DNA of 57,083 nt from Acidobacteriota bacterium (GTDB lineage: Bacteria; Acidobacteriota; Blastocatellia; RBC074), in contig JAJVID010000065.1 of assembly GCA_022072205.1 (NCBI GenBank), positions 1 to 57,083 on the forward strand, given 5' to 3'. The notes under the pieces were generated by a model, which was not told the origin of the DNA, ran no database searches, and saw nothing but the letters and a program-made list of their open reading frames with translations. The translations under genes were made by a program, and so were the position numbers. Of this stretch, positions 6,437 through 41,628 are shown piece after piece (the stretch's first letter is position 1; the number at the start of each line of letters is the position of its first letter).

Positions 6437-7006
6437 TTACTGGTTGACACGCTCGATCGAGCGGGCGATCAACACAGGCTCGTTTTTGAATTCGGCTTCG
6501 AGTTTCGGTTGAAGGTCCCAGCCGATTTCGCGCTCGATGTTGCTGACGTTCATCCGCTGCACGACGCCGGTCACGCGCACTTTGTTGCGCTTCCACTGGT
6601 CGTCAACATTCGCCAGGTTGCCGGCTTTCGGAATCAACACCAGCAGGTCGTCATCATTGTCTCCGGAGATATCCGAATCCTCGTCCAACTCGAACGCGCG
6701 CGGGCCGTAAACTTCATCAACGTCGGCGACCACCGTGACGGTCTTGCCGATCAGAGCGTTCGGATTCCTTGTGATGTCGGTCACGCGGTGAGTCGCGCCT
6801 ACTGGTAAACCGGTCGTTCCCACCGCGCCGGGCGACGTTGCCGGCGACGGATATGTTTCCGGCGTCGTCATCGGTGTTGTCATCGGTGTCGGCGTCGGCG
6901 TCACAATCGGTTCCGTTGCGGTTTCGCGATCTGTGGTTTCGCAACCGGCCACGAACGAAACCAGCGTGATGAACGCTGTGAAAAAAATAGCTGTGCGCTT
7001 CTTCAT
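6437..7006 (-). CDS. Lipoprotein with Thr/Pro-rich linker, unknown function
   Basis: The internal ATG at 7006 is preceded by the strong SD AGGAGGAGGAGGA. MKKRTAIFFTAFITLVSFVAGC has a lipobox, followed by a TPTPTPMTTPMTTPETYPSP linker. The longer ORF to 7219 overlaps the rhodanese frame. Confidence 0.75.
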   Translation of the reverse strand: MKKRTAIFFTAFITLVSFVAGCETTDRETATEPIVTPTPTPMTTPMTTPETYPSPATSPGAVGTTGLPVGATHRVTDITRNPNALIGKTVTVVADVDEVYGPRAFELDEDSDISGDNDDDLLVLIPKAGNLANVDDQWKRNKVRVTGVVQRMNVSNIEREIGWDLQPKLEAEFKNEPVLIARSIERVNQ

Positions 7007-7068
7007 TCCTCCTCCTCCTGTTGTGATGTTTTCGTTTCCACTTGTTCGCTGCGCCCGTAATTCATCAG

Positions 7069-7434
7069 TCATTTCTGTTCCAACGGGAAACCCGCCTGGC
7101 GCCATGCGTCGAATCCGCCCAGGAGCGGATAAACGTTGTGATAACCGCGCTCGATCAATTTCCGCGCCACACTGGCGCTCGATGCTTCCATCTGTCAGGT
7201 TCAGTAAGGGACTATCCACCGATCCTTTCCGCCATCTTTCGGGATTTCGCTCAACCGCAGATCAACTTCGTCGGCGGGTATGCGTATCGCGCCCGGAAGC
7301 TTTTCGCTCGCGTGGCTCCACGCCTGAGGGTTGCGGGAATCAATGAAAAACACAGGCTCGCCGCGATTCATCCGCCGCATCACCTCATCAGGCGTCACTT
7401 TGCGTATCATCGTTTGTTGAGTCGCTTCGGCCAT
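7069..7434 (-). CDS. Single-domain rhodanese (sulfurtransferase) with two in-frame TGA codons at the active-site loop: selenocysteine-recoding candidate or pseudogene
   Basis: ORF 7201..7434 (MAEATQQTMIRKVTPDEV...IPKDGGKDRWIVPY) continues in the same frame as TGA(7201-7203)-ACC-TGA(7195-7197)-QMEASSASVARKLIERGYHNVYPLLGGFDAWRQAGFPLEQK. The terminal TGA is at 7069-7071. Confidence 0.6.
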
Positions 7435-7462
7435 TTCTCAAAACTCCTTTCCTGAAAATACC

Positions 7463-7526
7463 GCGAGCGGTAGCGGCGCAGCCTGACTAATCGGCTCAGG
7501 CTAGAGATACGCTCGCTACCGCTCGC
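7463..7526. repeat. Compound intergenic hairpin
   Basis: Outer arms are GCGAGCGGTAGCG (7463-7475) and CGCTACCGCTCGC (7514-7526). Inner arms are AGCCTGA (7480-7486) and TCAGGCT (7496-7502). It lies between the M24 peptidase stop and the rhodanese start. Confidence 0.8.
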
Positions 7527-7546
7527 AGAATTGATACGAATCTTCA

Positions 7547-8803
7547 TCAAACCATCGCCGCAGGCCGCGCGGCGGCTTCGTCGCTGAGCGCCTCATCGCC
7601 CACTGACGACCTGACGACCAGATGTTCGATGTTCGACTGGAACGGCGTCAGAATTTCGACGCCGCTCTCGGTCACCATCGCCATGTCGCAATGACGCAAT
7701 CCGCCATAGCCCTCGACGTAAATCGCCGGTTCGACGTTGAAGACCATTCCAACTTCGAGCCGGTCTTCCGAAGCCGGGCGCAATCGCGGAAGCGCGTTGT
7801 GATCTATCGCGGCGAATCCCACGCCGTGCCCTGTCGCGTGTTTGAACTGATCGCCGAAGCCGCGCGAGACAAGCGCTTCGCGCGCAGCCGCGTCAACATC
7901 CGCCGCCATCGCGCCCGGCCTGATAACCTCCATCGCCGCGCGCAATGCGGCGTGAACCGCGCCGTACATCTCAAGCTTCCGCGGGCCGGCTTCGTCCAGC
8001 ACGAAGGTGCGCGTAATGTCCGTCCAGTAACCGTCGGCGTACGAGTTGCAATGAACCATCACGAAATCGCCCGGTTCCAGTTCGCGATCGCGCGAGCGCG
8101 CGTAAGCCTTATACGCCTCAGCCGAATTGGCGCCCGACATGACCGAGACGAATCCGTCGGCGCGCTGAACACCGGATCGGGGATCAACCATCATCAACGG
8201 CGCGCGAAACAAGGCCGCCGCTTCATACTCCTTCATCCCCTCGCGGAGCCGCCGCGTTCCTTCCCCAAAAGCATTCTCCGCCATACGGCAGGCCACGCGA
8301 ATGCGCCCGACTTCTCCGGGCGTTGGTCTCGCGCGCAAATTCGCCAGCAGATCGTCGGCGGGCCGCAGCCTCGTTTCTGGCAGACTCCGGCGAAGCAGAT
8401 CAACGATGCTCGCGCCGTGCAGATACATTGAGACGTAAGAGCCGGGAACCGACACCGGGCCGCGCTCATAACCGATGCGCCCTTTTTCGATGGAAAGGTC
8501 AACCGCCGCTTCGCGCAAAGGCAGCCAGAGCGCGTCCGCTGCCTGCTTGATCTCTTCAAGCGGCGCGGGTTGATACCTCCGCACTTCGTCAGCCAGCGCG
8601 CGTCCGGCCATCTCCACTTCGTCATCCGGCGCGATCAACACGACGCGCCCCTCGCGCGTGGCGATGGCCAGCGATGTTCCGATCACAGGCCAGTAGCCCG
8701 AAAGCAACAACACGTTGTTGGGCAGCGCGCAGATCAGCGCGTCCAGGCCGGCATCGTCCAGCGCGCGATGGATAGCTTCGACTCTGATGTCATCTCTCGC
8801 CAT
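7547..8803 (-). CDS. M24-family metallopeptidase (Xaa-Pro aminopeptidase/creatinase-like)
   Basis: 418-aa ORF with a creatinase-like N-domain and a pita-bread C-domain carrying the metal-ligand context ...HATGHGVGFAAIDHNALP...VFNVEPAIYVEGYGGLRHCDM. Confidence 0.9.
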   Translation of the reverse strand: MARDDIRVEAIHRALDDAGLDALICALPNNVLLLSGYWPVIGTSLAIATREGRVVLIAPDDEVEMAGRALADEVRRYQPAPLEEIKQAADALWLPLREAAVDLSIEKGRIGYERGPVSVPGSYVSMYLHGASIVDLLRRSLPETRLRPADDLLANLRARPTPGEVGRIRVACRMAENAFGEGTRRLREGMKEYEAAALFRAPLMMVDPRSGVQRADGFVSVMSGANSAEAYKAYARSRDRELEPGDFVMVHCNSYADGYWTDITRTFVLDEAGPRKLEMYGAVHAALRAAMEVIRPGAMAADVDAAAREALVSRGFGDQFKHATGHGVGFAAIDHNALPRLRPASEDRLEVGMVFNVEPAIYVEGYGGLRHCDMAMVTESGVEILTPFQSNIEHLVVRSSVGDEALSDEAAARPAAMV

Positions 8804-8939: not shown

Positions 8940-10082
8940 TCACACTCTCATCGAGGATTTATTCATCAACGCCGCGAGCGCGTGTGTTTCAAGCTCGGCG
9001 GCGCGATGCGCGGCGGTGTGTGTGGCCATCACGCGCGCGCGGGCGCGCAATCCCGTCTCAACGCGGATTTCCTCCGGCAATCGGCGCAGATAATCCAGCG
9101 TGTCTTCGGCGTCGTGCGCGATCAGTATTTCTTCGCCCGGCTCGAAAATAGTCTCCAACCCGCTCCACCAATCGCTGATGATCGGAGTGGCGCAGGCGGC
9201 GGCCTCGAACAAACGGACGCTGGGCGAATAACCCGCCGCGATCATGTCGGCGCGCGTGATGTTGAGCGTAAACCGCTGCGCGTTGTAAAAGGCGCGGTGA
9301 TCGGCCGGGTTCAGGTGAATCACTCGTTTGATGTTGGACGGCCACTGGATCGTTTTCGGATATTGCGGTCCGGCGACGATCATCCGCCCCTGCTTCCACC
9401 GGCGCGCCGGTTCGATCATCAACCGGTCGAGCGCGTACTGGCGGTCATCGCTGTAAGTTCCCAGATAACCCAAATCCCATCTCACGCCCGCTGGTTCGGG
9501 GTAATAAAGCTCAGGATCAACCGAGCAGTAGAGAGCGCGCGCCATCGGCGACCCATGTTTCTTCTCGATCAGATCGAGCGTCGGGCCGCCGGTGAACGAG
9601 AGGTAAAGGTCGTAGCGAGGGATCAGTTCGTAAGAGATGTACTCGACGGCGCCCTGCTTGAGATTGGCCAGCGTCACCGGCGTGTCTATGTCGTAAAAGG
9701 CCGTCGCTCCCTGCGCGACGCTGGTTACCCACTGGCCGATGGCGACGCCTGCGGGCACGTAAGACCCGACGATCACCAGATCGGCCTGGCGCACCTCGCG
9801 GGTGAATCGGCCTTTCAAATCTTCGAGACTCGAATAAATTTCAGTCCGGCTGTAAGGCGGGCATGGCAAGTCGCGGTTGTCGCGGTACCAGGGCTGATCG
9901 CGTTCGAGGAAAAGGACGCTGTGGCCGCGCCGGGTTAGTTCGCGCGCCAATCCCCGGTAAGTCGTCGCGTGGCCGTTGCCCCACGACGAGGTGATCGAAA
10001 GCCCTAAAATGACAATATCCATCGGCGCGTCCGATGACGCCTCATGGTCTTCAGGCAGGTCAAACTTCGGGACAACTCTCAT
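8940..10082 (-). CDS. CgeB-like (Glyco_trans_1_2-type) glycosyltransferase, paralogue 1
   Basis: 380-aa ORF. GGAGG lies 4 nt upstream of the ATG at 10082. The N-terminal motif is LGLSITSSWGNGHATTYRGLARELTRRGHSVLFLERD and the C-terminal GT-B motif is LFEAAACATPIISDWWSGLETIFEPGEEILIA. Confidence 0.85.
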   Translation of the reverse strand: MRVVPKFDLPEDHEASSDAPMDIVILGLSITSSWGNGHATTYRGLARELTRRGHSVLFLERDQPWYRDNRDLPCPPYSRTEIYSSLEDLKGRFTREVRQADLVIVGSYVPAGVAIGQWVTSVAQGATAFYDIDTPVTLANLKQGAVEYISYELIPRYDLYLSFTGGPTLDLIEKKHGSPMARALYCSVDPELYYPEPAGVRWDLGYLGTYSDDRQYALDRLMIEPARRWKQGRMIVAGPQYPKTIQWPSNIKRVIHLNPADHRAFYNAQRFTLNITRADMIAAGYSPSVRLFEAAACATPIISDWWSGLETIFEPGEEILIAHDAEDTLDYLRRLPEEIRVETGLRARARVMATHTAAHRAAELETHALAALMNKSSMRV

Positions 10083-10202
10083 TTATCCTCCCTGGAAAAT
10101 CTCCGGGTACGCGTCGCTTCTACATCCGTCAACAGAGCCGTGCGAAGGCGCGCCGCCGCACGGCTCTGTTTTTCTCATCATCCCGGATATGCTTTCTGTC
10201 AA

Positions 10203-11306
10203 TCAGGCGATCTCAACGAAGACCATAGGTTTCGCATCAAGCAGCGACTCCACCTGTTCGGCGCGGCGTTCGTAAGTGTGTTCCGCCAACAGCCGCAGCA
10301 ATGCGGCCTGTCCAATCGCCCGCGCTCGCTCAGGAGTCAATGATCTGATGTGTTCGCTCACTTCATCGCCGTCGCGCGCCACCAGAATTTCGCTTCCAGG
10401 TTCCAGGAACATCTCGATGCCTTCCCAGGCGTCTGTGATCAGGCAGGCGCCCGCGCCCGCCGCCTCGAAGATGCGCGTCGGCGGCGAGAATCCGTAACGA
10501 GCCATACTCTCGCGGTTGATGTTCAAAATCGCGCGCGGCGTGCTGTTGAACGCGTTGTGATCGCGCGTGAAGATGTGGCCGGCGTAATTGACGTTCGCCG
10601 GCGCGGGTTTGTCTTCCCAGCCAGCGCCGCCGAGCAGAAAGCGGCGATCCGGCATCGCGGCGGCGGGACGAAGAAAAAACTCTTCGACTCGCGCCTCCCG
10701 GTCAGGCAGCCGATTGCCCAGAAAACCCAGGTCAGCTTCGAATCGCGGGTCGGGATCAACGCGATGATGCGTCGCCGGATCGAGCGCGTTATAAATCGGC
10801 GCGCACATCCGCGCTCCCAGCGCTTCGTAAGCGTTCACCACCGCGTCGCCGCCGCCGTAGGTAAAAATCAGATCGTATTCCGGGATCAGTTGGCGAAACG
10901 GGTCTTCCGGATTCCGTTCAATGCGGTCGAGCGTCGCCGGAGCGTCAACATCCCAAAAAGCCACGAGCGTCCCTGGCCGCTGCATTTCGACCACGGCGTG
11001 TTCCAGCAAATCGTCGAAGACGCCCACGCCGCTGGCCTTGATCACCAGATCCGCGCTCGACGCTTCGGTCAACGCGCGAACCACGCCGTCTTCACCGGCG
11101 CCCTCGTAAACGACGACGCGCGCCCAGTCGGGATCGGTAATATCCCGGCGCTGCTGGCGGCCATAAGCGTCCGGTTCGTAAAACGTGACTCGGTGTCCGC
11201 GCCCGGCCAGCGCGCGAATGATGCCGCGATAGTAAGTCGCCGCGCCGTTCCAGTAAGCCGAAACCAGACTGGAGCCGAAGAATGCGATGTCGAGACCGTG
11301 TTTCAT
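10203..11306 (-). CDS. CgeB-like glycosyltransferase, paralogue 2
   Basis: ORF 10203..11384. The ATG at 11306 follows GGAGG (MKHGLDIAFFGSSLVSAYWNGAATYYRGIIRALAGRGHRVTFYEPD). C-terminal motif IFEAAGAGACLITDAWEGIEMFLEPGSEILVA. Confidence 0.85.
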   Translation of the reverse strand: MKHGLDIAFFGSSLVSAYWNGAATYYRGIIRALAGRGHRVTFYEPDAYGRQQRRDITDPDWARVVVYEGAGEDGVVRALTEASSADLVIKASGVGVFDDLLEHAVVEMQRPGTLVAFWDVDAPATLDRIERNPEDPFRQLIPEYDLIFTYGGGDAVVNAYEALGARMCAPIYNALDPATHHRVDPDPRFEADLGFLGNRLPDREARVEEFFLRPAAAMPDRRFLLGGAGWEDKPAPANVNYAGHIFTRDHNAFNSTPRAILNINRESMARYGFSPPTRIFEAAGAGACLITDAWEGIEMFLEPGSEILVARDGDEVSEHIRSLTPERARAIGQAALLRLLAEHTYERRAEQVESLLDAKPMVFVEIA

Positions 11307-11352
11307 AGCGCCTCCCTGGCATTGAGCAGCGAGGTGGCTCTCCGCAGTCCGT

Positions 11353-12678
11353 TCATCCGGCGGCCATTTTGTACCTGCGGCCAACCACCGGCATGCTCTC
11401 CAATGATTTCACCTGAAGCTCCGCGCAGATTTTCAACAGTTCGTTCACGCGATGCGTACAGGTGTGCCGATTGAGGATCGTACGCAATCCGTGTTCGGAG
11501 AGCTTGTCCCTCAAATCTTCGTCGGCGAGCAATGCCGCTAGATGGCGTTTCATCTCATCGCCGTCGCGCGCGACAAGATAATCCTCACCGGGCGTGAAGA
11601 GATTTTCGGCGTCCTCCCAGGGGGCTGAAACAAGCGGTATGCCACAGGCCAGCGCCTCGAAGACACGGATCGTGGGAATGCCCGGCAGATTCACGGCGTA
11701 TGGGCGGCGCGGCGCGTGGATAGTAAATTTGTAGTTGGCGAAGACCTCCGGCGCGCGGTAATTGGGCAGCCAGCCGCCATATTCGATCCCGGCCTGGGCG
11801 AGCATCTCGCGCGCGTGATCCGGATAACGCACGCCGTAAACGCGGGTCTTGAGATTCAATTGCCGCGCAGGCTCGACCAGAAACTCTCGCAATTCCGCCG
11901 CGCGTTCGTCATCGCCCCAGTTGCCTATCCAGACCAGATCGCCCTGGGAGCGCACGCTTCCAGGGGCACGCTGGAAGCATGCGCCCCCAGCGTGCTCCCA
12001 GGGATCAACGGAGAGAGCGCGTGGAACGGGATAACTCGGCGCCGGGGCGTTCGGTTGATGGGGTGAGGTTTCCCCCGGCGACTCTTCTGTTTTAGTTTCC
12101 CCTCCATTAACTCCACCACTCTCTCCGTCTTCGCTCATCGTTCGCGGGTAAAAGGTGCGGATGTCGGCGGCCTCGTGCCAGACCCAGGCGCGCTCGGCCC
12201 ACCCTCGTGACAAATACAGGTCACGAATCACTCCGCCGAACGCCAGCACGCCGTCGTAGCTCGACAGGTCGTAAGCCGCAATGCCATCCGCATCGGTGAT
12301 CGAACGATGATGCGTGTCGTGAAAAAGCAACCGGTAATTTCCGGCCTGCGCGCGATGCCGGCCCACGCGCCTGACCAGTTCGTGATCGTTCCATTCGTGA
12401 ACGATCACCAGATCCGCGCCGTCCAGAGCTTCGTCCAGATCGAGTTGATCGAGCCGGTAACGAACGCTTTTGAGCGCTGGATAAGCCTCGCTGAAATCGC
12501 GGAGCGCGTCTTCGCCGCGTTCGGCGATCAGGTTTTTCAGGCTCCACGCGTCGTGCGGCTCGTAGACTTTGACCTCGTGCCAGCGGTCGAGCAGTTCGAG
12601 CGCCACGCCGCGCAGGAAGTGGGCGTTGCCGTGATTCCAGTCCGACAACAGCGAGTGGTAAAACATCACTACGCGCAT
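11353..12678 (-). CDS. CgeB-like glycosyltransferase, paralogue 3, with an interdomain insertion of about 55-65 aa
   Basis: 441-aa ORF: MRVVMFYHSLLSDWNHGNAHFLRGVALELLDRWHEVKVYEP...VFEALACGIPLVSAPWEDAENLFTPGEDYLVA. There is a low-complexity insert at aa ~181-245 relative to its paralogues. Confidence 0.85.
   Translation of the reverse strand: MRVVMFYHSLLSDWNHGNAHFLRGVALELLDRWHEVKVYEPHDAWSLKNLIAERGEDALRDFSEAYPALKSVRYRLDQLDLDEALDGADLVIVHEWNDHELVRRVGRHRAQAGNYRLLFHDTHHRSITDADGIAAYDLSSYDGVLAFGGVIRDLYLSRGWAERAWVWHEAADIRTFYPRTMSEDGESGGVNGGETKTEESPGETSPHQPNAPAPSYPVPRALSVDPWEHAGGACFQRAPGSVRSQGDLVWIGNWGDDERAAELREFLVEPARQLNLKTRVYGVRYPDHAREMLAQAGIEYGGWLPNYRAPEVFANYKFTIHAPRRPYAVNLPGIPTIRVFEALACGIPLVSAPWEDAENLFTPGEDYLVARDGDEMKRHLAALLADEDLRDKLSEHGLRTILNRHTCTHRVNELLKICAELQVKSLESMPVVGRRYKMAAG
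11942..12004. repeat. Palindromic element embedded in frame in the glycosyltransferase CDS
   Basis: CCCTGGGAGCGCACGCTTCCAG...CTGGAAGCATGCGC(11-nt bulge)GCTCCCAGGG. The terminus C(C/T)GGGAGCGC resembles the intergenic CCGGGAGCG hairpin family. Confidence 0.6.
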
Positions 12679-12723
12679 GCGTCCCTCAGAAGATAGCCAC
12701 GTAGTGACGAATGATGGTCTTTG

Positions 12724-12824
12724 AGCGTAGGGGCGGGTTTTCCCCGCCCAAGCGCCTTGACAGCGGATGCGGGCGGGGAAAACCCGCCCCTACGCTGTTG
12801 GCGTAGTTAATTTTCAAACGCCAT
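12724..12824. repeat. MITE-like palindromic element (GTAGGGGCGGGTTTTCCCCGCCC family), copy 1, reverse orientation
   Basis: Arms AGCGTAGGGGCGGGTTTTCCCCGCCC (12724-12749) and the reverse complement at 12771-12796. An asymmetric tail, GTTAATTTTCAAACGCCAT, is shared (as its complement) with the copy at 23005-23112. The tail contains the last 4 codons and stop of the GT4 gene. Confidence 0.9.
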
Positions 12825-14037
12825 AATTCGTCACCATGTGGGGTGTTTTCTCATCTCGTCCCGCCATCAAATCGGCGTAGGCTTTCAGGTAACCGGCGGC
12901 CATGCGCTCAGGCGTGAATTCACGGGCGCGTATCAGGGCGCGCGCTCCGTAATCCGCGCGCAATGCCGTGTTCTCCATCAATTCCTCAATCGCGTCGCGC
13001 AAAGCTCCGATGTCGTCCGGCGGGACGAAGACCGCCGCATCGCCCCAGACTTCGCGCAAGCTGGGAATGTCGCCGAGCGCCAGCGCGCAACCCGACAATC
13101 CCGCTTCAAGCGCCGACAGCCCGAACGGTTCGTAACGCGCTGGCAGGGCGTAAATGGACGCGCGCGAAAGCCAGATGGCGATCTGCTGTTGAGACAATTG
13201 TCCGAGCAAATGAACGTTGGGCGCGAAGACAACATCAACATCCGATCCGTTCGGATGTTTCTGATCTCCGGCGAGCAGCGCCGGCCACACGATCCGCGAG
13301 GCGGCGCGTCCCAACGCGCTGATGTTTTTGGCTTCGTCCCACAACCGCCCGGCGGCCATCACGAAATCGCTTTTCGCTCTCACTTCAAAGAGCGACGCGT
13401 CGCGCCCGTTGTAAACGACTCGCCCATCGCGGATCGGGCCATAATGATCTTCGAGCGCCGCCAGCATTGCGCGCGTCGGCGCAATGACGATATTCGCGGC
13501 GGACAACCCGCGCGCGACTTCGGCGCGATATTGATTCCATTGCGCAGGCGCGGCGCAGCCTCGCACAGCTTGCCACCACGACAGCACGCACGAATGACCG
13601 GCTACCAACACCGGCGCGCGCCAGCCAATCGCTCCGTGCGCGTACCCGTTCAGGTGGATGACATCGGGCCGGATGCGCTCTTCCAGCGACAGCAGCCATT
13701 CGCCCGCCTCTCGGACGTCGCTCCAGGGGTCATCCATCCATTCCAGCTTGTAGTCGCTTTCAAAAACTTCGAGGTTGGCGATGCGCTCAGCCTCCGCGCG
13801 CTGCGACGAAGAGAGCGGGGCGCCCATCGTCGCCAGCGAGACGACGACGCCGCGCTCGGCCAGCGCGCGCGTCAGTTCCAGCGCGTAAGTCCACACGCCG
13901 CCCACCGTGTCGGCGGTCATCAGAATTCGCCTCGGCAATGACGCGGGCGCAGGCCATCGAAGGCGCGGGCGCAGCCTTGAATCGGGCTGCGTCCGCGGAT
14001 AGGCATAATTGCTGTTTATGACATCAGAGCGGATCAT
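12814..14037 (-). CDS. GT4-family (GT-B, group 1) glycosyltransferase
   Basis: 407-aa ORF with ILMTADTVGGVWTYALELTRALAERGVVVSLATMG near the N-terminus and the EPFGLSALEAGLSGCALALGDIPSLREVWGDAAVFVPP E-x7-E region. The ATG at 14037 overlaps the stop of the upstream small ORF (ATGA). An alternative start at M40 is possible. Confidence 0.85.
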   Translation of the reverse strand: MIRSDVINSNYAYPRTQPDSRLRPRLRWPAPASLPRRILMTADTVGGVWTYALELTRALAERGVVVSLATMGAPLSSSQRAEAERIANLEVFESDYKLEWMDDPWSDVREAGEWLLSLEERIRPDVIHLNGYAHGAIGWRAPVLVAGHSCVLSWWQAVRGCAAPAQWNQYRAEVARGLSAANIVIAPTRAMLAALEDHYGPIRDGRVVYNGRDASLFEVRAKSDFVMAAGRLWDEAKNISALGRAASRIVWPALLAGDQKHPNGSDVDVVFAPNVHLLGQLSQQQIAIWLSRASIYALPARYEPFGLSALEAGLSGCALALGDIPSLREVWGDAAVFVPPDDIGALRDAIEELMENTALRADYGARALIRAREFTPERMAAGYLKAYADLMAGRDEKTPHMVTNYGV

Positions 14038-14288
14038 TTTTCCGATTCCGCCCCGCTCACCGTCTCAGAGCTAACGTCGCCAACCGGCGCCGGAGCTTCG
14101 CTGCTTTCCGCATTGAGGCTCTGGTCGCCCGCGAGGTCGCCGCCGCCCAGCGTGACGTTTTCCTGAACCGCCATCTGGCTCACGATTCCGCCCGCAATCG
14201 GGTTGCTCATGTCGAGCTGCCCCACATCGCCAGCGCCGCTCTGATTCATGCTCGTAGTTTCCTGTTCTGTGAGATTCTCTTTTTCCAT
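14034..14288 (-). CDS. 84-aa highly acidic Gly/Ser/Glu/Asp-rich protein, no recognisable family
   Basis: AGGAGA lies 4 nt upstream of the ATG at 14288, and the stop overlaps the GT4 start. The sequence is MEKENLTEQETTSMNQSGAGDVGQLDMSNPIAGG...GDVSSETVSGAESEK, with no Cys or aromatic residues. Confidence 0.55.
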   Translation of the reverse strand: MEKENLTEQETTSMNQSGAGDVGQLDMSNPIAGGIVSQMAVQENVTLGGGDLAGDQSLNAESSEAPAPVGDVSSETVSGAESEK

Positions 14289-14351
14289 GATTTCTCCTGT
14301 TAATCAGCGCCGCGAGCGGCGCTGGTGTGTGTTTCAATTACACCTCTTCGT

Positions 14352-15425
14352 TCAACGCCATCTGTTTGCATAGATCGCGTCGAGCGCAGAGGCAACGTCT
14401 GCCAATCGTTCAGCCGCCGGATCGAAGCCCCCACCGGCAGCCACACCGCGCGCCCATTCGACAATCGCGCGCCCGCTCCAATCGCCGGTTTCTCCATCGG
14501 ACGCGCCGGCCAGCGTTTCGCATCTCGTTCCGTGAAAGCGTTCGATGATGAAGTCATAAAATGATCCGCCAACGTTCCGCATCGCCGCTCCGCCGAGCGT
14601 GCCGTAAAAACTCGCCGAGATGACCGCATCGCAGCCTGCGGGCAGACGCCACGAGCAGGCCATCTGCGCCACCGCGCCGCCGCTGAGCGTCAACAGCGCA
14701 GCGGCGTAATCTTCGACTCTGTTCAATTCGCCGAGCGGCTCACCGCCAGCGAACAAGCGGCTGCTGGCATTTTCGACTCGCGGAAAATCGAGCGCCCAGA
14801 GCGCCAGATCAACCAGATGAATTCCCAAATCCATCACGCATCCGCCGCCCGAAAGCCGCCGGTCGTAAAACCAGTCTTTGTCAGGTCCGTAGGCGTTGTG
14901 AAAGACCAGGTCAATCGCGTAGACGCGTCCCAGTTCGCCGCCGCGAATCAGATCACGAATCTTCGGCGCTCCGGCGAGGTGGCGATAACAAAGGTCAACG
15001 CCGAGCAGCCGATCCGCCCGCCGCGCGGCCTCGACCACGCGGCGCGTTTCGGCTGCGCTGCGGCCAAGCGGTTTCTGGCAGAAGACGCTCACGCCGCGTT
15101 CGAGAGCGACGATTGACTGCTCGGCATGCAGCGCGCTCGGCGTGGCGATGACCACGCCGTCAACGCCCGCGTCCAGCAGCGCTTCGAGCGATCCTTTCAA
15201 TTCGGCGCCCGGCGCTACCGCCGCAGCCGCTTCGGCCATCTCGCTCGACGTGTCGGCGATGGCCGCGACTTCAACCAGACCGCTGTTGGCGACCGCTTCC
15301 ATCCGGCGCCGTCCGATCCAACCCACACCCAGAAAACCCAGCCTCGGTTTGCGCCGCGCGACGCGGTCATTGACCGATTGCCCCGCTTCCCGCCCTGTGA
15401 TCAGTTGCGCCGCTGATGAATCCAT
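14352..15425 (-). CDS. Gfo/Idh/MocA-family NAD(P)-dependent oxidoreductase
   Basis: 357-aa ORF with the Rossmann N-terminus LGFLGVGWIGRRRMEAVANSGLVEVAAIAD and an EKP-like motif region FCQKPLGRSAAE. Confidence 0.85.
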   Translation of the reverse strand: MDSSAAQLITGREAGQSVNDRVARRKPRLGFLGVGWIGRRRMEAVANSGLVEVAAIADTSSEMAEAAAAVAPGAELKGSLEALLDAGVDGVVIATPSALHAEQSIVALERGVSVFCQKPLGRSAAETRRVVEAARRADRLLGVDLCYRHLAGAPKIRDLIRGGELGRVYAIDLVFHNAYGPDKDWFYDRRLSGGGCVMDLGIHLVDLALWALDFPRVENASSRLFAGGEPLGELNRVEDYAAALLTLSGGAVAQMACSWRLPAGCDAVISASFYGTLGGAAMRNVGGSFYDFIIERFHGTRCETLAGASDGETGDWSGRAIVEWARGVAAGGGFDPAAERLADVASALDAIYANRWR

Positions 15426-15434
15426 TCGCGATCC

Positions 15435-16388
15435 TCACATCGTGATCACGGCTTTGAGGAAGCCGTCAGGACGATCGCGCATCATCTCCATCGCCTGATC
15501 AATCTGGTCGAGTTTGAATGTGTGCGTGTAAAGCGGCGCGGGGTTGAGCTGTCCTTTCGCGACGGCGTTGATCGCCTCGCGCATTCCCGCGACGTAAACG
15601 CGCGGGTCGCGTTCGTGCGCGTTGATGACATCGAGTCCGCGCCAGTTCCACAACTGCATGTTGACCTGACGAGGCCCGTCCTGGTGGTAGCCGGCGATGA
15701 TCAGCCGCCCGCGTTCGCGTGTCACTTCCGTAGCCAGATCGAGCGGCCACTGTTCGCCGATGGCTTCGATCACACGGTCGCAGCCTTCGCCGGAAGTCAG
15801 TTCGATCACTTCTTCGATGATCCGCAGGTGATTTTTCATCGGAACCGTCTCTGCGGCGCCGGCCTCGCGCGCGACATCCAGCGCGTAAGGCCGTCGCGAA
15901 ACCGCAATCACCCGCGCCCCGGCGCGCGAGGCCAACTGCGTCAACAACGCTCCCAGAAAGCCCACGCCGATGATCGCCACGTTCTGCTCCGGCTCGATCT
16001 CGGCGCGACGAAAGATGTTCATCGCGCAGGCCAACGCTTCACCGGGAAACGGTTTCCCGATTAACGAATCCGGCAGCGGCACGACTTCATCGGATCTGGC
16101 TACGTCGTATTCGGCAAAGGCGTGATAAGAGAGCATCGTCACCTGATCGCCGACGAGGAAATTCCTCACTTCGCTACCGACGGCGTCAACGCGGCCCCAG
16201 GCTTCGTGCCCCGGAGCCCCGGCGGCGCGCGGATAGTTGAACCAGTTTCGTCCCTCCCACACGGGCATGTTCGACGCGCACACGCCGCAGCCTTCGATCC
16301 GCACGCGGACTTCGTGGGCCGCCGGTTCGGGAATTATCATTTCGGAAATTTCCGTTTTCTTCGGCCCCGTGATGGTGGCTGCGCGCAT
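15435..16388 (-). CDS. Zinc-binding medium-chain alcohol/polyol dehydrogenase
   Basis: ORF 15435..16493. A family-typical N-terminus begins at the ATG at 16388 (MRAATITGPKKTEISEMIIPEPAAHEVRVRIEGCGVCASNM). The GHEAWG zinc-ligand motif and the NAD-binding IIGVGFLGALL are present. Upstream in-frame starts at 16436 and 16493 cannot be excluded. Confidence 0.85.
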   Translation of the reverse strand: MRAATITGPKKTEISEMIIPEPAAHEVRVRIEGCGVCASNMPVWEGRNWFNYPRAAGAPGHEAWGRVDAVGSEVRNFLVGDQVTMLSYHAFAEYDVARSDEVVPLPDSLIGKPFPGEALACAMNIFRRAEIEPEQNVAIIGVGFLGALLTQLASRAGARVIAVSRRPYALDVAREAGAAETVPMKNHLRIIEEVIELTSGEGCDRVIEAIGEQWPLDLATEVTRERGRLIIAGYHQDGPRQVNMQLWNWRGLDVINAHERDPRVYVAGMREAINAVAKGQLNPAPLYTHTFKLDQIDQAMEMMRDRPDGFLKAVITM

Positions 16389-16661
16389 CGTGGTTGCAAT
16401 GGGTTTGGGCGCTAAGACGGTTGATGAATAGGCCATTACTTTTCTTTGATCCTTTGTTCCTTTGATCTTTCGCGCTGAAGAGCCTGCCGGCAAAAATGCA
16501 TTTCCGGGCAGACTGTTCGATTCAATTGTTCAAGCCGGTCTTTCAAAACCGGCGCGATTGGCAAGGCCGGAGTTACGCCGCACGGCGGCGTTGAAATTAC
16601 AGGTATGCAGGTTCAATCAAATCTTTTCACGTCTGGCCGCGTCCGGGGCGAAGCGGAGAAT

Positions 16662-17936
16662 TCACCCGGTCGCCACTGCGCGCGCGGCGCCGCCCGCTTT
16701 CGGCGCCCGTTCACGCAGCCATTCACGTAACCATTCGCGCAATCGGCAGGCGCCGTCGAACACATTCACTCGCGGACGCCAGCCGGTCGCGCGCTGGAAT
16801 TTGCGTGTGTCCGACACGTAATAACGCTGGTCGCCGGTGCGCCATTCGCCGAACAGGATTTCGGGCGCCGCCCCTTCGATCTCGCTGATCAGGTTGATCA
16901 GTTCCAGCAGGCTGACGGTGTTGGACGGGCCGCCGCCGATGTTGAAAACCTGACCTGCGATGGCCGCCATGTTTTTCTGCGCCAGCATGAACGCATTGAT
17001 CAGGTCTTCGACAAACAGCGCGTCGCGCACCTGGCAGCCGTCGCCGTATATGTTGAGCGGCTGACCCTGAATAGCGCGAATCAGAAAGTGCGCGATCCAG
17101 CCCTGGTCTTCAGTGCCGAATTGCCGCGGGCCATAGACGCAACTCATCCTGAAGACGACCGCAGGCAGGCCGAAGCTGCGCGCGTAATCGGCGACGTACT
17201 GATCAGCAGCGCCTTTGGAACATCCGTAGGGGCTGTGAAAATCGAGAGGCCTATTTTCTCCAATGCCGTGCTCTCGAATTTTTCCGTCGCGCGGCTGATA
17301 CCGCGCCCCTTCGCGGACAAGCTCCACGTCTCCGAGCGCGCCATAGACCTTGTTGGTCGAGGTGAAGACGAGCGGCGGAGGATCGTTGAGCGCCCGCAGA
17401 GCTTCGAGCAGGTTCAACGCGCCGCGCGCGTTGATTTCGAAGTCGCTCGACGGATCGTCCAGTGAAGTGGTCACCGCAACCTGCGCCGCAAGGTGAAAGA
17501 CCTGTGACGAGCGTTCGACGGCCCGCGCCAGAGCCAATGCGTTGCGCACATCGGCGATTTCAACCTGCGCCCGATTCCCGTGCGTCGCGCGCAGCCATCG
17601 CAGGTTCTGCTCGACGCCGCGTCGCGACAGGTTGTCGAACAGCAACACCGGACGGCCTTCCGACAACAACCTGTGCGCGAGGTTTGCGCCCACGAACCCG
17701 GCGCCGCCCGTGATCAACACCGGACGATTGCGGCTTGCGCGCGCCGCTTCAAGCCCGCCGCCTTCACAAAGTCTGAAGAGCGATCTCGGCGAACCGTTGT
17801 CGAGTTTCAGTTCGGGATGGTAATCGTCCGAAACGGTTTCTGATGGGAAAGGAGGAGTCCGTTGTTCAGAACCGATGGTTATAGCCGCCGCCGTTTCATC
17901 GCCCGGCGCCGGCTTGTCGCCATCCGTCTCCTTCAT
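16662..17936 (-). CDS. NAD-dependent epimerase/dehydratase (extended SDR) with an N-terminal extension of about 70 aa
   Basis: 424-aa ORF. AAGAGGA SD upstream of the ATG at 17936. VLITGGAGFVGANLAHRLL glycine motif, and a YGCSKGAADQY catalytic YxxxK. Confidence 0.85.
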   Translation of the reverse strand: MKETDGDKPAPGDETAAAITIGSEQRTPPFPSETVSDDYHPELKLDNGSPRSLFRLCEGGGLEAARASRNRPVLITGGAGFVGANLAHRLLSEGRPVLLFDNLSRRGVEQNLRWLRATHGNRAQVEIADVRNALALARAVERSSQVFHLAAQVAVTTSLDDPSSDFEINARGALNLLEALRALNDPPPLVFTSTNKVYGALGDVELVREGARYQPRDGKIREHGIGENRPLDFHSPYGCSKGAADQYVADYARSFGLPAVVFRMSCVYGPRQFGTEDQGWIAHFLIRAIQGQPLNIYGDGCQVRDALFVEDLINAFMLAQKNMAAIAGQVFNIGGGPSNTVSLLELINLISEIEGAAPEILFGEWRTGDQRYYVSDTRKFQRATGWRPRVNVFDGACRLREWLREWLRERAPKAGGAARAVATG

Positions 17937-18231
17937 ACTGTCAATCCTCTTTCCGCAAGTTCGGCGCTGGCCTGCGTCACGCGGTCAACCGCCGATTGCG
18001 TTTCCAGCCACGAGGCCAACTCGATCAGCCCCACCTCAAGCGTCACGCGCGGCTCGTAAACCGGAACTCGCCGCGCTCATCACAACAATCTATTGGCAAA
18101 GTCACGCCGGGATTGATGGGGGAAATAGGGAAGATAGGCATTGTCAGAGAGTGAGAATTCAGGCGGCGCCTGACGCGCTTGCAGGACGCGTCCGTATTCA
18201 ATATCGGCTGAAAGATCTTTCCACCACTCAC
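17933..18231 (-). pseudogene. Possible decayed 3' remnant of a second SDR epimerase/dehydratase gene
   Basis: A frame ending in a TGA that overlaps ATG 17936 reads ...YEPRVTLEVGLIELASWLETQSAVDRV..., an SDR C-terminal-type motif. It is preceded by TGA TGA (18077-18082). The adjacent frame reads ...NPGVTLPIDCCDERGEFRF. No start codon is available. Confidence 0.35.
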
Positions 18232-18346: not shown

Positions 18347-18457
18347 CACTCCGGGAGCGCGCGTATCCCCACGTGCGAGCGGTGGTAGGTTAATGGCTGA
18401 GACAATTCGGTCGTAGGGCTAAATTACGCACGCAGGGATGCGCCCGCTCCCGGAGTG
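18347..18457. repeat. CCGGGAGCG-terminus hairpin family, copy 1
   Basis: Arms CACTCCGGGAGCGCGCGTATCCCCACGTGCG (18347-18377) and CGCACGCAGGGATGCGCCCGCTCCCGGAGTG (18427-18457), about 4 mismatches, loop of about 49 nt. Confidence 0.85.
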
Positions 18458-19749: not shown

Positions 19750-20049
19750 ACATACTTTGCAGCCTGTTCCGTATTCTTCTTCGAAGCAGTTACAAACCAA
19801 ACGCAATTTTTTCTACCGCCCGGTTTTCAGTCTGTCGGCGCCTTTCCGCACCCTTGCCCGAAAATGCCCACGAATTCGGTCGGCGCGCCGATTGCACCAA
19901 CTCAAACCAGACCAAATAAGACAAAGTAAGAAGGCCGGTCAGGGCGTATCGCGGCGGGACATAGAATGTCCTGCCGCAAGACGGTGCGGATCAGCCGAAA
20001 AAATTTTTATGGCGAGTTCCGCACGCGGCTGACCAAAGGTTCAAACACA

Positions 20050-22965
<2,916 letters not shown>

Positions 22966-23004
22966 TGTCCTGTGATAAGGCATCGAAAAAATGTCCGATA
23001 ACTG

Positions 23005-23112
23005 ATGGCGTTTGAAAATTAACCACAACAACAGCGTAGGGGCGGGTTTTCCCCGCCCTGATCCGCTATCAAGATGGCAGGGCGGGGAAAACCCGCCCCT
23101 ACGCTGTTGTTG
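23005..23112. repeat. MITE-like palindromic element (GTAGGGGCGGGTTTTCCCCGCCC family), copy 2
   Basis: Tail ATGGCGTTTGAAAATTAAC plus arms CAACAACAGCGTAGGGGCGGGTTTTCCCCGCCC (23026-23058) and the reverse complement at 23080-23112. It lies between treY and treS. Confidence 0.9.
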
Positions 23113-23147
23113 CAGTATCTACTCTCGGACACTTTTGGTGAAACGTT

Positions 23148-24815
23148 ATGAGTGTTGAAAGCGCAATCCATTCTGATCCGCCCCGGCCTGATCCGCTCTG
23201 GTACAAAGACGCGGTCTTTTACGAAGTTTACGTGCGCGGCTTTTACGACTCGAACGCCGACGGGATCGGCGACTTTCGCGGGCTGACCGAGAAGCTCGAT
23301 TATTTGGAATGGCTGGGCGTTGATTGCCTGTGGCTGCTGCCGATGTACCCGTCGCCGTTGCGCGACGGCGGTTACGACATCTCGGATTACTATTCGATCC
23401 TGCCGGAATACGGGACGCTCGACGATTTCAAAAATTTTCTCGCGGCGGCGCACGCGCGCGGCCTGCGAGTGCTCACCGATCTGGTGATCAATCACACTTC
23501 CGACGAACACCCCTGGTTCAAGGAGTCGCGCGCCTCGCTGAATTCGCCGAAGCGCGATTGGTACGTGTGGAGCGATACCGATTTGAAATACGCGGACGCG
23601 AGGATCATCTTTCTCGACACCGAGCGTTCCAACTGGGCGTGGGACGAACATTCGGGCCAGTTCTACTGGCATCGCTTCTTCAGCCATCAGCCCGATCTCA
23701 ACTACGACAACCCTGAAGTCCGGCAGGCGATGCTCGACGTCGTTCGCTTCTGGTTCGATCTCGGCGTTGACGGTTTAAGGCTCGACGCGATCCCTTATCT
23801 TTACGAACGAGAGGAAACGAATTGCGAGAACCTGCCCGAAACGCACGCTTTCATCAAGCTCCTGCGCCGCTTCGTTGACGAACACTACTCCGGCCGGTTG
23901 TTGCTGGCCGAAGCTAACCAGTGGCCCGAAGACGTCGTGGCTTATTTCGGCGAAGGCGATGAATGCCACATGTGCTATCACTTCCCGATTATGCCGCGAT
24001 TGTTCATGGCGCTGCGCCAGGAAGACCGGCGCCCGATAATCGAAATTCTGAATCGCACTCCGGCCATCCCCGAAAACGCGCAATGGGGGATGTTCCTGCG
24101 TAATCACGACGAGTTGACGCTGGAGATGGTGACCGATGAAGAGCGCGATTACCTTTACGCCGAATACGCCAATGACCGGCGGATGCGGCTCAACCTCGGC
24201 ATCCGCCGCCGGCTGGCGCCGTTGATGGACAATGGGCGCAGGCGAATCGAGTTGCTCAACGCGCTGCTCTTCAGCCTGCCGGGCAGCCCGTTTCTGTATT
24301 ACGGAGACGAGATCGGGATGGGCGACAACATTTATCTGGGCGACCGCGACGGCGTGCGGACGCCTATGCAATGGTCGCTCGACCGCAACGCCGGATTTTC
24401 AAGAGCCGATTTCGCGCAATTGTATTTCCCGATAAATATGGACCCGGTCTACGGCCATCAGTCGGTCAACGTCGAAGCGCAGCAGCGCCATTCGACCTCG
24501 CTGTTGCACTGGATGCGCCAGATAATCAAATTGAGGAAGAAGCATCCGGTCTTCGGGCGCGGCTCGCTCGAATTCCTCAGACCGGAGAACAGAAAGGTTC
24601 TGGCCTTCACGCGAAGTTACGCGGGCGAAACCGTGCTGTGCGTCTACAACCTCGCGCGATCATCGCAGCCGGTGCAACTCGACCTGAGCCAGTATCAGGG
24701 AAGAACGCCCGTGGATTTGCAATACCAGTCGCCATTCCCGCGCATCGAGGAACGTCCCTACCAGCTCGCGCTCAACGAATACGGATTTTACTGGCTCCTG
24801 CTGGCGAAGCCCTGA
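23148..24815 (+). CDS. treS: Trehalose synthase / maltose alpha-D-glucosyltransferase (GH13)
   Basis: 555-aa ORF: [107 protein letters not shown]. Confidence 0.9.
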
Positions 24816-24833
24816 AGCGCGAAGCATGCGTAT

Positions 24834-25745
24834 TCACGCTTCCCGCGATGCGTTCGCCGCCGCCTGCGAATGGGCTTTCGCCGAAATTCCCGAATGCGCG
24901 CCGCTCTCGCGCCATCGCCGACGCAATCGCCGGCGCAATTCATCCTTCTCGCGCTTGATCGGCAGCCGGTAACGCGTTCCCAGGCTGATGTCCTGCGGCC
25001 TGGGCCGGGCTGTGCCGTCAGCGATCATTCGCACCGCGTCGGTCATCAACCGGACGCAATGCTCCATCATCCGCGCGCGATAATCGGCGATGAAGCGCTC
25101 GAAATCGAGGCCGTAAGAATAATCGTAGACGAGCGGCAAGGTTTCCTGAACGAGTATCTCGCCGGTATCAACCTTCGGCTCGACGAAATGCACCGTGACT
25201 CCGACCTCGCGCTCTCCGTTATACAACTCCCAGAAAACCGGAGGCCCGCCGCGATAGTAAGGCGCCCGCCCCTGATGAATGTTCACCGAACCGAGGCGCG
25301 GGATTTTGAACACGGACTCTTTCAGGATGTTCGTTCCCCAAACGATACCCAGGTCAGCCTCCGCCGCGCGCATCAGGGCGATGGATTCTTCGGTGTGATA
25401 GTTCGACAGGAAATGCGCAGGCGTCCCCAGGAGTCCGGCGGTTTTGCCGAGCGCCCGCTGATTCTCGCGGATCTGACTGGTTTCATCAGAAGAGGAATCC
25501 TTACGATTCGCAAGCAGGCGAAGCCCCTTCATCACTGTGGCGGCATATCCTTCGTAACGTATCGAACGGCGCAGTTTATCGCGCAGGCCGTAAATCCGGC
25601 GGTTGACCTCTGTCTCGATGAACATGCCGGCGACCTCCACGCCGTCAATCTTTATCAAATTCCCCAGCAGGGACTCAGCGTCGCCGTGCGTGAGCACAAT
25701 TACACGTAGTTTTTTGTTATCCGAACTCATAGCGTTCACTTCCAT
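24834..25745 (-). CDS. Formyltransferase-family protein (Fmt/PurN-like N-domain)
   Basis: ORF 24834..25904. Probable start at ATG 25745 or 25730 (MSSDNKKLRVIVLTHGD...). SVNIHQGRAPYYRGGPPVFWELYNGEREVGVTVHFVEPKVDTGEIL matches the formyltransferase core. Confidence 0.75.
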   Translation of the reverse strand: MEVNAMSSDNKKLRVIVLTHGDAESLLGNLIKIDGVEVAGMFIETEVNRRIYGLRDKLRRSIRYEGYAATVMKGLRLLANRKDSSSDETSQIRENQRALGKTAGLLGTPAHFLSNYHTEESIALMRAAEADLGIVWGTNILKESVFKIPRLGSVNIHQGRAPYYRGGPPVFWELYNGEREVGVTVHFVEPKVDTGEILVQETLPLVYDYSYGLDFERFIADYRARMMEHCVRLMTDAVRMIADGTARPRPQDISLGTRYRLPIKREKDELRRRLRRRWRESGAHSGISAKAHSQAAANASREA

Positions 25746-26093
25746 CGTTCTGTCGTTTTGCGATGGTTGGATTAAGCAGCGAATCAGCCGGACTGAGAGG
25801 CGGGGGGCCTCTATGAACTGATCGTTTTCGTTGTAAGGAGGGATAAGAGATGGAAAAGCAGAGATGCAATAAGATTGAATAAAGAAAAATGCGGGACGGA
25901 TCAATTATCTCAGCCGGCGCCTTTTTTTCCTTTTGTATTCTTGCATCTCTTATTTCCAACGCTCCATTTTTCAAGGCGCAAGGCCAGCGGTTGGCGTTGC
26001 TGGCCGCGCCTGTAATTGTGGGATTCGAGGATTATCCGGGCGAAATATCCGCTTCTTTAAACGGGCGGTTAGTGAGCAAACTCCGAGCCAGAG

Positions 26094-30102: not shown

Positions 30103-30127
30103 TTCGAATTGTCCGGCGAGGACGATT

Positions 30128-37518: not shown

Positions 37519-37519
37519 T

Positions 37520-38602: not shown

Positions 38603-38629
38603 TGGCCCGCGATTTCATTATGGAGGCGG

Positions 38630-38965: not shown

Positions 38966-38978
38966 ACCAGATTTTGAA

Positions 38979-41627
<2,649 letters not shown>

Positions 41628-41628
41628 A

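Follow-up and report, generated by a model that had tools for sequence, protein, structure and literature searches.

Two operons on a single contig of an Acidobacteriota bacterium (Blastocatellia; assembly GCA_022072205.1, contig JAJVID010000065.1) lie 32 kb apart, and each encodes glycosyltransferases (GTs) related to CgeB together with enzymes of sugar metabolism. Do they form one system, and what might that system make? We analyzed positions 1 to 57,083 of the contig's forward strand (this whole stretch of 57,083 nucleotides is the window; G+C ~57–62%), which belongs to a genome assembly of 6.47 Mb in 221 contigs that is 89% complete. Operon A (8940–17936) and operon B (49785–55577) are both on the minus strand. 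Comparative gene order strongly supports the view that they are two halves of one horizontally mobile cassette that recurs with little change in more than 10 bacterial phyla. Our best explanation, to which we assign a probability of roughly 0.7, is that the mobile cassette consists of soluble enzymes, is split and reduced in the window, and would make a short glycan or glycoside in the cytoplasm, probably with a stress-protective role and possibly built on inositol phosphate.

Two operons of one mobile cassette

We compared 80 related loci, found across many phyla with the CgeB-type glycosyltransferase GTP2 of operon A, by tblastn of all window proteins. On one Gemmatimonadales contig (locus L020), orthologues of all operon-A and operon-B genes stand in one contiguous locus and are 47–77% identical to those of the window. 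Their order is epi1 (a GalE/4-epimerase-like enzyme), an extended short-chain dehydrogenase/reductase (SDR), a Zn-dependent dehydrogenase (ZnADH), a Gfo/Idh/MocA oxidoreductase (Gfo), an unassigned gene, the GT4-family glycosyltransferase (GT4), GTP3, GTP2, GTP1, a methyltransferase, a gene for a 572-amino acid (aa) protein and a HAD phosphatase gene; the locus continues with a gene for a 295-aa protein, a nucleotidyltransferase gene (NTP) and GTP4 on the opposite strand, and then a histidine-phosphatase superfamily gene (HisPhos). Across loci, the canonical order is epi1; the SDR, sometimes with an N-terminal domain like the 295-aa protein; a middle module; GT4, GTP3, GTP2 and GTP1; and a methyltransferase, which is present in 45 of the 80. 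The middle module in 53 loci is ZnADH plus Gfo (31), a B12-radical SAM enzyme (14), ZnADH only (4) or nothing (4). The window's order GT4-GTP3-GTP2-GTP1 is that of most of the 80 loci (a few are rearranged) and of the Sinorhizobium meliloti replicon pSymB. Operon-B orthologues lie within the same locus in 32 of the 80 (295-aa gene in 25, NTP in 19, GTP4 in 18, HisPhos in 14, 572-aa gene in 10, HAD in 4), GTP4 is consistently paired with the nucleotidyltransferase gene in other genomes, and in a genome of the same class the GTP4-NTP pair is divergent from SDR-ZnADH-Gfo (L026).

The two halves also occur together at the level of whole genomes. Among 300 other Acidobacteriota genomes, GTP2 is found in 3 and the 295-aa gene in 2, both inside those 3 (Fisher p 6.7e-5), and 37 of 50 GTP2-positive genomes of other phyla carry a 295-aa orthologue (62–80% identical). 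Operon A and B halves are on different contigs in the sister species and in one Acidobacteriota carrier too. The initial annotation had proposed one system split in two, and locus contiguity, synteny across the 80 loci and genome co-occurrence bear this out; we found no orthology to any capsule, exopolysaccharide or spore-coat locus whose product is defined.

A scan of species-representative genomes with GTP2 gave at least 588 confirmed stretches. Cultured carriers include Thermithiobacillus, Pontibacter, Rufibacter, Salinimicrobium, Sorangium, Archangium, Myxococcus, Variovorax, and Luteibacter, and metagenome-assembled genomes with GTP2 come from Cyanobacteriota, Verrucomicrobiota, Armatimonadota, and Chloroflexota. 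Close homologues are annotated as Blastocatellales (Acidobacteriota); in the bacterium's own lineage, the genes are rare, with GTP1 in 5 of 41 relatives and GTP2 in 4 of 301 Acidobacteriota, its own genome included. Identities of 60–79% across Acidobacteriota, Gemmatimonadota, Myxococcota, Bacteroidota, Pseudomonadota, Verrucomicrobiota, Cyanobacteriota, Armatimonadota, and Chloroflexota are unusually high for glycosyltransferases. This high cross-phylum identity, combined with the patchy distribution, points to horizontal spread of a strongly constrained unit.

By family matches and gene order, the cassette is orthologous to the neighborhood marked by TIGR04290 and TIGR04295, as in S. meliloti SMb20238–SMb20251. 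Methyltransferases of related loci exceed the TIGR04290 cut-off (354 and 391 bits, cut-off 300), and a radical SAM enzyme of a related locus exceeds that of TIGR04295 (720 bits, cut-off 400). Plasmids or chromids with a GTP2 orthologue number 147; most are from Sinorhizobium and Rhizobium, and pSymB of strain 1021 is one of them. On pSymB, tblastn places the 295-aa gene, HisPhos, the 572-aa gene, Gfo, ZnADH, epi1, SDR, GT4, GTP3, GTP2, and GTP1 at positions 242496–257890, along with a further SDR and a methyltransferase, at 36–75% identity to queries from the window and related loci; by the coordinates that the PMC3616915 supplement gives, these genes correspond to SMb20238–SMb20251. The S. 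meliloti locus resembles the window in the order epi1, TyvE-like SDR, GT4, GTP3, GTP2, GTP1, in having ZnADH and Gfo, the 572-aa protein, HisPhos and the 295-aa barrel, and in encoding only soluble proteins, neither system having been characterized. It differs in being unsplit and in having a TIGR04290 methyltransferase, a cluster-type inositol-phosphate synthase and an intact epi1, whereas the GTP4-nucleotidyltransferase pair and the HAD phosphatase, all present in the window, are missing from pSymB within 14 kb. Measured against the TIGR04290/TIGR04295 cassette as a whole, the window has the GT block in order, the middle module and, as operon B, the accessory module; of the two SDR genes, it keeps epi1 only as a relic, and it lacks the methyltransferase.

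The rhizobial locus also connects the cassette to stress. In supplementary file 2 of PMC6180224, overexpression of RpoE2 significantly raised every gene from SMb20238 to SMb20253 (logFC 0.78–2.96). RpoE2 is a general stress sigma factor, and the S. meliloti cluster is part of the general stress regulon. One member of the induced set, SMb20249, is annotated there as a myo-inositol-1-phosphate synthase. In our literature search, the S. meliloti gene numbers appeared only in supplementary tables, and we found none in a main text.

Soluble enzymes and a possible inositol-linked product

Eight co-directional minus-strand open reading frames (ORFs) occupy 8940–17936 at the coordinates first assigned to them, with their domains matched by Pfam, and a degraded epimerase pseudogene at ~17936–18231 is, from its alignment to intact epi1, the ninth element of operon A. 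Three of the eight encode CgeB-type glycosyltransferases with a PF13524 (Glyco_trans_1_2) domain: GTP1, a GT-B enzyme (380 aa, 8940–10082, E 9e-36), GTP2 (367 aa, 10203–11306, E 2e-40) and GTP3 (441 aa, 11353–12678, E 7e-39). The fourth, GTP4 (368 aa, 54471–55577, E 1e-39), heads operon B. The GTP2 gene stands as annotated except for its start: the ORF can be read from a TTG at 11384, the position given before, and the likely start is 11306, since orthologues are 367 aa long and their starts align with it. The N- and C-terminal motifs reported for these enzymes are invariant columns of the four-way paralogue alignment, and GTP4 is indeed nearest to GTP1 (45% identity vs 33% and 27% for the others). 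Strong PF13524 matches in the genome are limited to these four (125–141 bits; next best 54 bits).

The three CgeB-type enzymes of operon A had been described as tandem paralogues. They are related, but a maximum-likelihood tree resolves ancient orthogroups rather than recent tandem copies: each of the four is monophyletic across at least five phyla (support 97–100/96–100; GTP3 100/100), with GTP1 and GTP4 as sister orthogroups (95/89). The joint retention of four such diverged GTs suggests four distinct roles or a hetero-complex. GTP1 orthologues are 55–72% identical across phyla, GTP2 homologues are 73–79% identical in Gemmatimonadota, Chloroflexota, Pseudomonadota, and Thermoanaerobaculia, and the ratios of nonsynonymous to synonymous substitution rates (dN/dS) against the sister species are 0.12 for GTP1 and 0.11 for GTP2. 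GTP3 carries an in-frame insertion of ~66 aa (residues ~179–244; window 11942–12150) that is missing from orthologues in other phyla, where tblastn matches break into residues 1–178 and 245–422; the sister species has the insertion too, at a differing length. A PDB sequence search with a CgeB-type GT detected zero relatives.

The remaining enzymes of operon A belong to families that act on sugars or cyclitols. GT4 (407 aa, 12814–14037; PF13439, PF13692, PF00534) has MshA, BshA, and PimA-type enzymes as its top matches, all below threshold (TIGR03449 37.4 bits vs 462.5; TIGR03999 37.7 vs 273.7, for the MshA/BshA families), and is probably the priming enzyme of the cassette; elsewhere its gene always stands immediately ahead of GTP3-GTP2-GTP1. 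Gfo (357 aa, 14352–15425; PF01408, PF22725) is nearest to IolG inositol 2-dehydrogenase, to glycoside 3-dehydrogenases such as DgpA and to 1,5-anhydrofructose reductase, and we infer that its target is a ring hydroxyl, either of a sugar or of a cyclitol. ZnADH, a medium-chain dehydrogenase (352 aa, 15435–16493; PF08240, PF00107), has IolM scyllo-inosose 3-dehydrogenase as its top NCBIfam match, below cut-off, and secondary-alcohol and ketose reductases as PDB matches; it would be the partner of the Gfo enzyme. The extended SDR (424 aa, 16662–17936), in which the Pfam domain begins at residue 73, is related to CDP-tyvelose 2-epimerase: residues 73–406 match PDB 9rl0 (E 1.8e-86) and 1orr (E 3.2e-85) over their full length, with the next best match at E 2e-41. 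The first is TaTyvE of Thermodesulfatator atlanticus, which interconverts CDP-glucose and CDP-mannose (PMC7851689, PMC13098431), and whose genomic context is not discussed in its paper; the second is Salmonella RfbE/TyvE. The cassette differs from TyvE systems in lacking the 3,6-dideoxyhexose genes (CDP-glucose 4,6-dehydratase, E1, E3), and its SDR has in many genomes an added glycosidase-like N-domain. Where epi1 is intact, in other genomes, it resembles UDP-hexose/GlcNAc 4-epimerases.

Downstream of GTP4, operon B encodes a sugar-1-phosphate (or inositol-phosphate) nucleotidyltransferase (NTP, 276 aa, 53640–54470; PF00483), which has only distant RmlA/GalU-type matches among known families and orthologues that are 63–72% identical. 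The 295-aa protein (52731–53618) is a putative TIM-barrel protein with motifs of the clan GH-A type. Its WNEPNN and WVSEVG motifs, putatively the clan's acid/base and nucleophile signatures, are invariant in an alignment of 18 orthologues; the AlphaFold2 model is barrel-like (predicted local distance difference test score, pLDDT, 83); fold matches to GH128, GH10, and GH5 are partial; the sole Pfam match, PF11790, scores 16.8 bits against a cut-off of 21; and a PDB sequence search returned zero matches. The fold matches are partial because the protein is a circular permutant, namely of the ~290-aa N-domain that is fused to the TyvE-like SDR in many genomes. By blastp, its residues 5–184 match fusion residues 154–331 and residues 194–294 match 46–148, and the re-permuted sequence is collinear with the fusion N-domain (E 1e-35). 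The permutation point is located between strand 3 and the NEP strand (window 52731–53618; L023:11329–13470 on the minus strand; L018:4400–6391). The free 295-aa gene is missing in 13 GTP2-positive genomes, nearly all of which carry the fused SDR domain instead.

The 572-aa protein (50882–52600; AlphaFold2 pLDDT 91) joins an N-half of unknown alpha/beta type to a C-half with a choline-kinase/APH fold (Foldseek match to LicA 4r78, E 2e-7, probability 1.0). Matches to APH, GntI, and ThiK are weak, a PDB sequence search gave a single chance-level match only, and homologues in many phyla are all annotated "hypothetical." In the LicA/LicC system, the fold of this C-half and a nucleotidyltransferase in the same operon recur, but identity is only 11–16%, the cassette lacks a LicD-type transferase, and elsewhere the 572-aa gene pairs with a HAD phosphatase gene rather than with the nucleotidyltransferase gene. 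That phosphatase (HAD-IIIA, GmhB-like, 163 aa, 50394–50885; PF13419, PF00702) exceeds the TIGR01662 cut-off, has heptose 1,7-bisphosphate 7-phosphatase as its best equivalog-type match, below cut-off, and directly follows the 572-aa gene in Gemmatimonadales loci. HisPhos (200 aa, 49785–50387; PF00300, E 1.5e-51) scores 201.2 bits against TIGR03848, the MSMEG_4193 family, with a cut-off of 203.85. Operon B had been read as supplying sugar activation for tailoring by operon A; its nucleotidyltransferase, kinase-like protein and two phosphatases fit sugar activation, but that division of labor holds only in part. The operon also encodes a GT and a glycosidase-like barrel, and elsewhere its module is linked with inositol-1-phosphate synthase.

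From family membership and gene order, we propose a pathway in which every enzymatic step, the acceptor and the product are inferred. The nucleotidyltransferase would activate a hexose phosphate or inositol phosphate, and the 572-aa kinase-like protein and the GmhB-like phosphatase would handle a bisphosphorylated intermediate. The CDP-tyvelose-2-epimerase-like SDR might diversify the pool of nucleoside diphosphate sugars, helped in complete cassettes by the GalE-like SDR. GT4 would prime a soluble acceptor, possibly inositol phosphate, and the four non-redundant CgeB-type GT-B enzymes would each add one defined residue or act as a hetero-complex. Gfo and ZnADH could oxidize and then re-reduce a ring hydroxyl, HisPhos could strip the acceptor's phosphate, and the permuted GH-A-like barrel may trim or recycle the product. 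By hydropathy, zero products of either operon have a 19-mer above 1.64 on the Kyte-Doolittle scale or a signal-like N-terminus, and Pfam gave zero matches to a polyprenyl-phosphate GT, flippase or polymerase among operon A and B proteins. As all proteins are predicted to be soluble and no priming, flippase or polymerase gene is present, the likeliest product is a short glycan or glycoside built in the cytoplasm.

Pathways with a similar logic exist. Mycobacterial methylmannose polysaccharide and methylglucose lipopolysaccharide (MMP/MGLP) are made by soluble GTs, one or more O-methyltransferases, a dedicated hydrolase and a histidine-phosphatase-type dephosphorylation, as intracellular glycans without export genes. 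The likeness is one of pathway logic only; the phyla differ, this genome lacks a methyltransferase, and epimerases, redox enzymes and four CgeB-type GTs are found in the cassette in addition. Mycothiol synthesis (MshA plus a phosphatase) and PimA priming share with the cassette the subthreshold matches of GT4, the phosphatases and, elsewhere, a linked inositol-phosphate synthase; unlike mycothiol loci, the cassette lacks a cysteine ligase and a deacetylase, and GT4 scores 37 bits against 462. The cassette methyltransferase of other loci weakly matches the methyltransferase domain of WbdD, a kinase and methyltransferase that caps glycans. In contrast to Wzx/Wzy-, synthase- and ABC-dependent loci, the operons encode no polyprenyl-phosphate priming transferase and no export or polymerization proteins.

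The suggestion of inositol comes from the accessory module. Of 50 cassette genomes (G328–G377), 36 encode a PF01658 inositol-1-phosphate synthase: 34 of the 37 with the free 295-aa gene versus 2 of the 13 without it (p 6.6e-7, uncorrected for phylogeny). In 19 of these 37, a short-type synthase gene and the 295-aa gene are no more than 12 kb apart. At least 6 of the 80 loci, in Verrucomicrobiota and Pseudomonadota, contain the synthase, and one Armatimonadota locus has a partial PF01658 match at its edge. Because PF01658 tracks the accessory module, inositol phosphate is plausible as an acceptor or building block of the full system. The synthase travels with the 295-aa gene, HisPhos and GTP4-NTP, for example at L096:12209–13276 and L107:4123–5226.

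The neighborhood in the window fits the theme of stress protection, albeit as a single neighborhood. As the initial annotation stated, the operons flank a trehalose locus and a chaperone block. The former (19966–30219) encodes TreY, TreS, a GDE-type debranching enzyme and TreZ, with TreY, TreS, and TreZ above their NCBIfam cut-offs, and the latter (36906–44457) encodes GrpE, DnaK, DnaJ, ClpB, and Lon.

Several observations weigh against the reading we favor. The stress link comes from one alphaproteobacterium and from gene neighborhood. The sole inositol-phosphate synthase of the window's genome is on another contig and is not of the cluster-associated type, 14 of the 50 cassette-bearing genomes have none, and inositol-family matches are far below cut-off (IolG 94 bits vs 355; MshA 37 vs 462). 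This copy is split and reduced, and without three common parts, it might make a different product or none. We found no paper characterizing the cassette, or the enzyme activity, acceptor or product of any member. Finally, in at least seven loci of other phyla, the cassette contains or borders on genes for ABCB-type exporters, which suggests that the product may leave the cytoplasm.

The last point makes an exported product the main rival to our best explanation. Soluble GTs could assemble a cell-surface or periplasmic glycan (an exopolysaccharide, a capsule or an oligosaccharide like osmoregulated periplasmic glucans) for export by an ABCB-type half-transporter, much as cyclic beta-glucans are exported by NdvA/ChvA. 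MsbA/ChvA-like exporter genes occur within or beside the cassette at L104:12922–14670, L056:13103–14830, L054:3858–5564, L062:3537–5237, L040:15303–16721, L020:19443–21125, and L037:17541–18986, and one of the same type lies at 46521–48392 of the window, 1.4 kb past operon B. However, most of the 80 loci have no exporter within 10 kb, the embedded exporters and the window's do not pair as reciprocal best hits (other ABC genes of the window's genome match the former equally well or better), all exporter matches are below the cut-off of every family, and the operons contain zero genes for a priming GT, Wzx/Wzy, Wza/Wzc, or a membrane-anchored synthase. We thus regard a surface or periplasmic product as unlikely. 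Having no reciprocal best hit, the window exporter was rejected as an orthologue of the cassette-embedded exporters. A Crp-family regulator is encoded between operon B and this exporter.

A split and reduced copy

Does the copy in the window still function? We compared it with that of the sister species, which is 82–84% identical at the DNA level, over window 17750–18231 and L023:12380–14800. The SDR of the sister species is a 713-aa fusion with the N-domain, in which Gly stands at both catalytic Glu positions; in the window, ~860 bp of this domain are gone, in frame, and the first ~34 codons and the linker are kept. The 70-aa N-terminal extension ascribed to the window's SDR is real, and this in-frame deletion explains it: residues 1–72 are the remnant of a lost glycosidase-like N-domain. 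From epi1, ~1.05 kb are missing relative to the sister's intact 375-aa gene, leaving a relic of ~300 nucleotides in which the ribosome-binding site, a GTG start, the last 41 codons (61% match to L020 epi1) and short islands of the interior survive. An intact epi1 paralogue, 56% identical, is at G000:C155:12087–13172, beside a weak PF13524 match; judged by its sequence, it could supply the lost epimerase activity in trans. The best TIGR04290 score in the bacterium's own genome is 108 bits against the cut-off of 300, and zero genomes of the genus pass; as the assembly is 89% complete, the absence of the methyltransferase is not certain. In a third genome of the genus (L025, G004:C298, 8750–10988), a ZnADH orthologue (73%) is followed directly by a GTP1 orthologue (74%), and other cassette genes were not found within the 19.5 kb examined, which suggests a further reduced or rearranged copy.

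These losses could mean that the copy is decaying and that the ancestral product is no longer made, the split and the deletions being steps of erosion. Consistent with decay, the window has several deletions when compared with the sister species, TIGR04290 finds nothing above its cut-off in the genus, GTP3 has a repeat-derived insertion, and most genomes of the genus and family lack the cassette. However, each of the 13 enzyme genes that remain is an intact ORF, and dN/dS against the sister species is 0.10–0.24 for the 11 with valid estimates (GTP4 and the 295-aa gene are left out), like the flanking housekeeping gene, a peptidase (0.18). The remaining cassette genes are under purifying selection. 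The paralogue on contig C155, along with cassettes of other phyla that lack the N-domain or the methyltransferase, also speaks against decay, which we consider distinctly improbable.

We tentatively postulate a new class of stress-induced, intracellular, inositol-phosphate-primed and often methylated glycosides or oligosaccharides, which might serve as a protectant beside trehalose in soil bacteria of more than 10 phyla and for which the four GTs would form a fixed assembly line; the genus' reduced variant would then show that the methyltransferase, the GalE-like epimerase and the glycosidase-like domain of the SDR are dispensable for the core product. If the product were identified, a stress metabolite widespread among soil bacteria could come to light, and the large "CgeB family" would gain a first biochemical function outside spores. 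The window itself contributes a natural case of the cassette working from two unlinked operons, and a set of natural deletions that mark out a minimal core.

The acidic reading frame and the DNA between the operons

An ORF of 84 aa, acidic and rich in Ser, Thr, and Gly (14034–14288, minus strand), precedes GT4, and its stop overlaps the GT4 start. This ORF is the basis of a further alternative, in which the enzymes would glycosylate a protein, in the manner of CgeB and CgeA, with the 84-aa product as substrate. The PF13524 domain is common to the cassette GTs and to the C terminus of Bacillus subtilis CgeB, a spore-crust maturation glycosyltransferase after which databases name homologues "spore maturation protein CgeB," and PMC13577073 links CgeB to the glycosylated crust protein CgeA. 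The mini-ORF is also Ser/Thr-rich and translationally coupled to GT4. Against this, the mini-ORF has zero family matches in Pfam and NCBIfam searches, and its homologue is confined to the sister species, with 61% identity, seven gaps or indels and a dN/dS of 0.45; ~78 other loci are complete without it, nearly all leaving just 0–60 nucleotides upstream of GT4; and no other conserved small protein is found in the cassette. Being less constrained and absent from almost all other loci, the mini-ORF is not a conserved component, and we rejected it as a conserved substrate or part; on comparative grounds it is genus-specific and outside the conserved cassette. It is also the sole candidate for a CgeA-like partner, and fails as one for the same reasons, although no search was aimed at CgeA homologues. 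Unlike B. subtilis CgeB, the cassette has no sporulation context and no conserved protein substrate, and it has instead four distinct orthogroups acting with nucleotide-sugar enzymes. We conclude that protein glycosylation is very improbable. In L020, a 267-aa Lys/Ala-rich low-complexity protein (6874–7677) occupies the mini-ORF's position between Gfo and GT4; disordered proteins peculiar to one lineage may be a recurrent feature here.

The 32 kb of unrelated genes between operons A and B and the failure to find a shared promoter motif might suggest two glycan loci with nothing in common but a GT family. This reading is hardly credible and is already contradicted by synteny, given A-B contiguity or adjacency in many phyla, genome-level co-occurrence of the hallmark genes and GTP4 as a distinct orthogroup that travels with the cassette.

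The noncoding DNA yielded few features. Rfam matched zero RNA families in the window at the gathering threshold, and a promoter and terminator scan of the region upstream of operon A gave one weak sigma-70-like site, not above chance expectation. Upstream of the two operons, in the window and the sister species, we found no shared regulatory motif beyond the terminus of a repeat hairpin, and this in the window only: the arms of a hairpin at 55594–55687 and a hairpin at 18347–18457, upstream of operon A, share the terminus CCGGGAGCG. The hairpin at 55594–55687 is long and GC-rich, is followed by TTTTT and ends 17 nucleotides short of the GTG at which GTP4 starts; it may terminate the gene upstream or act as a leader or attenuator of operon B.

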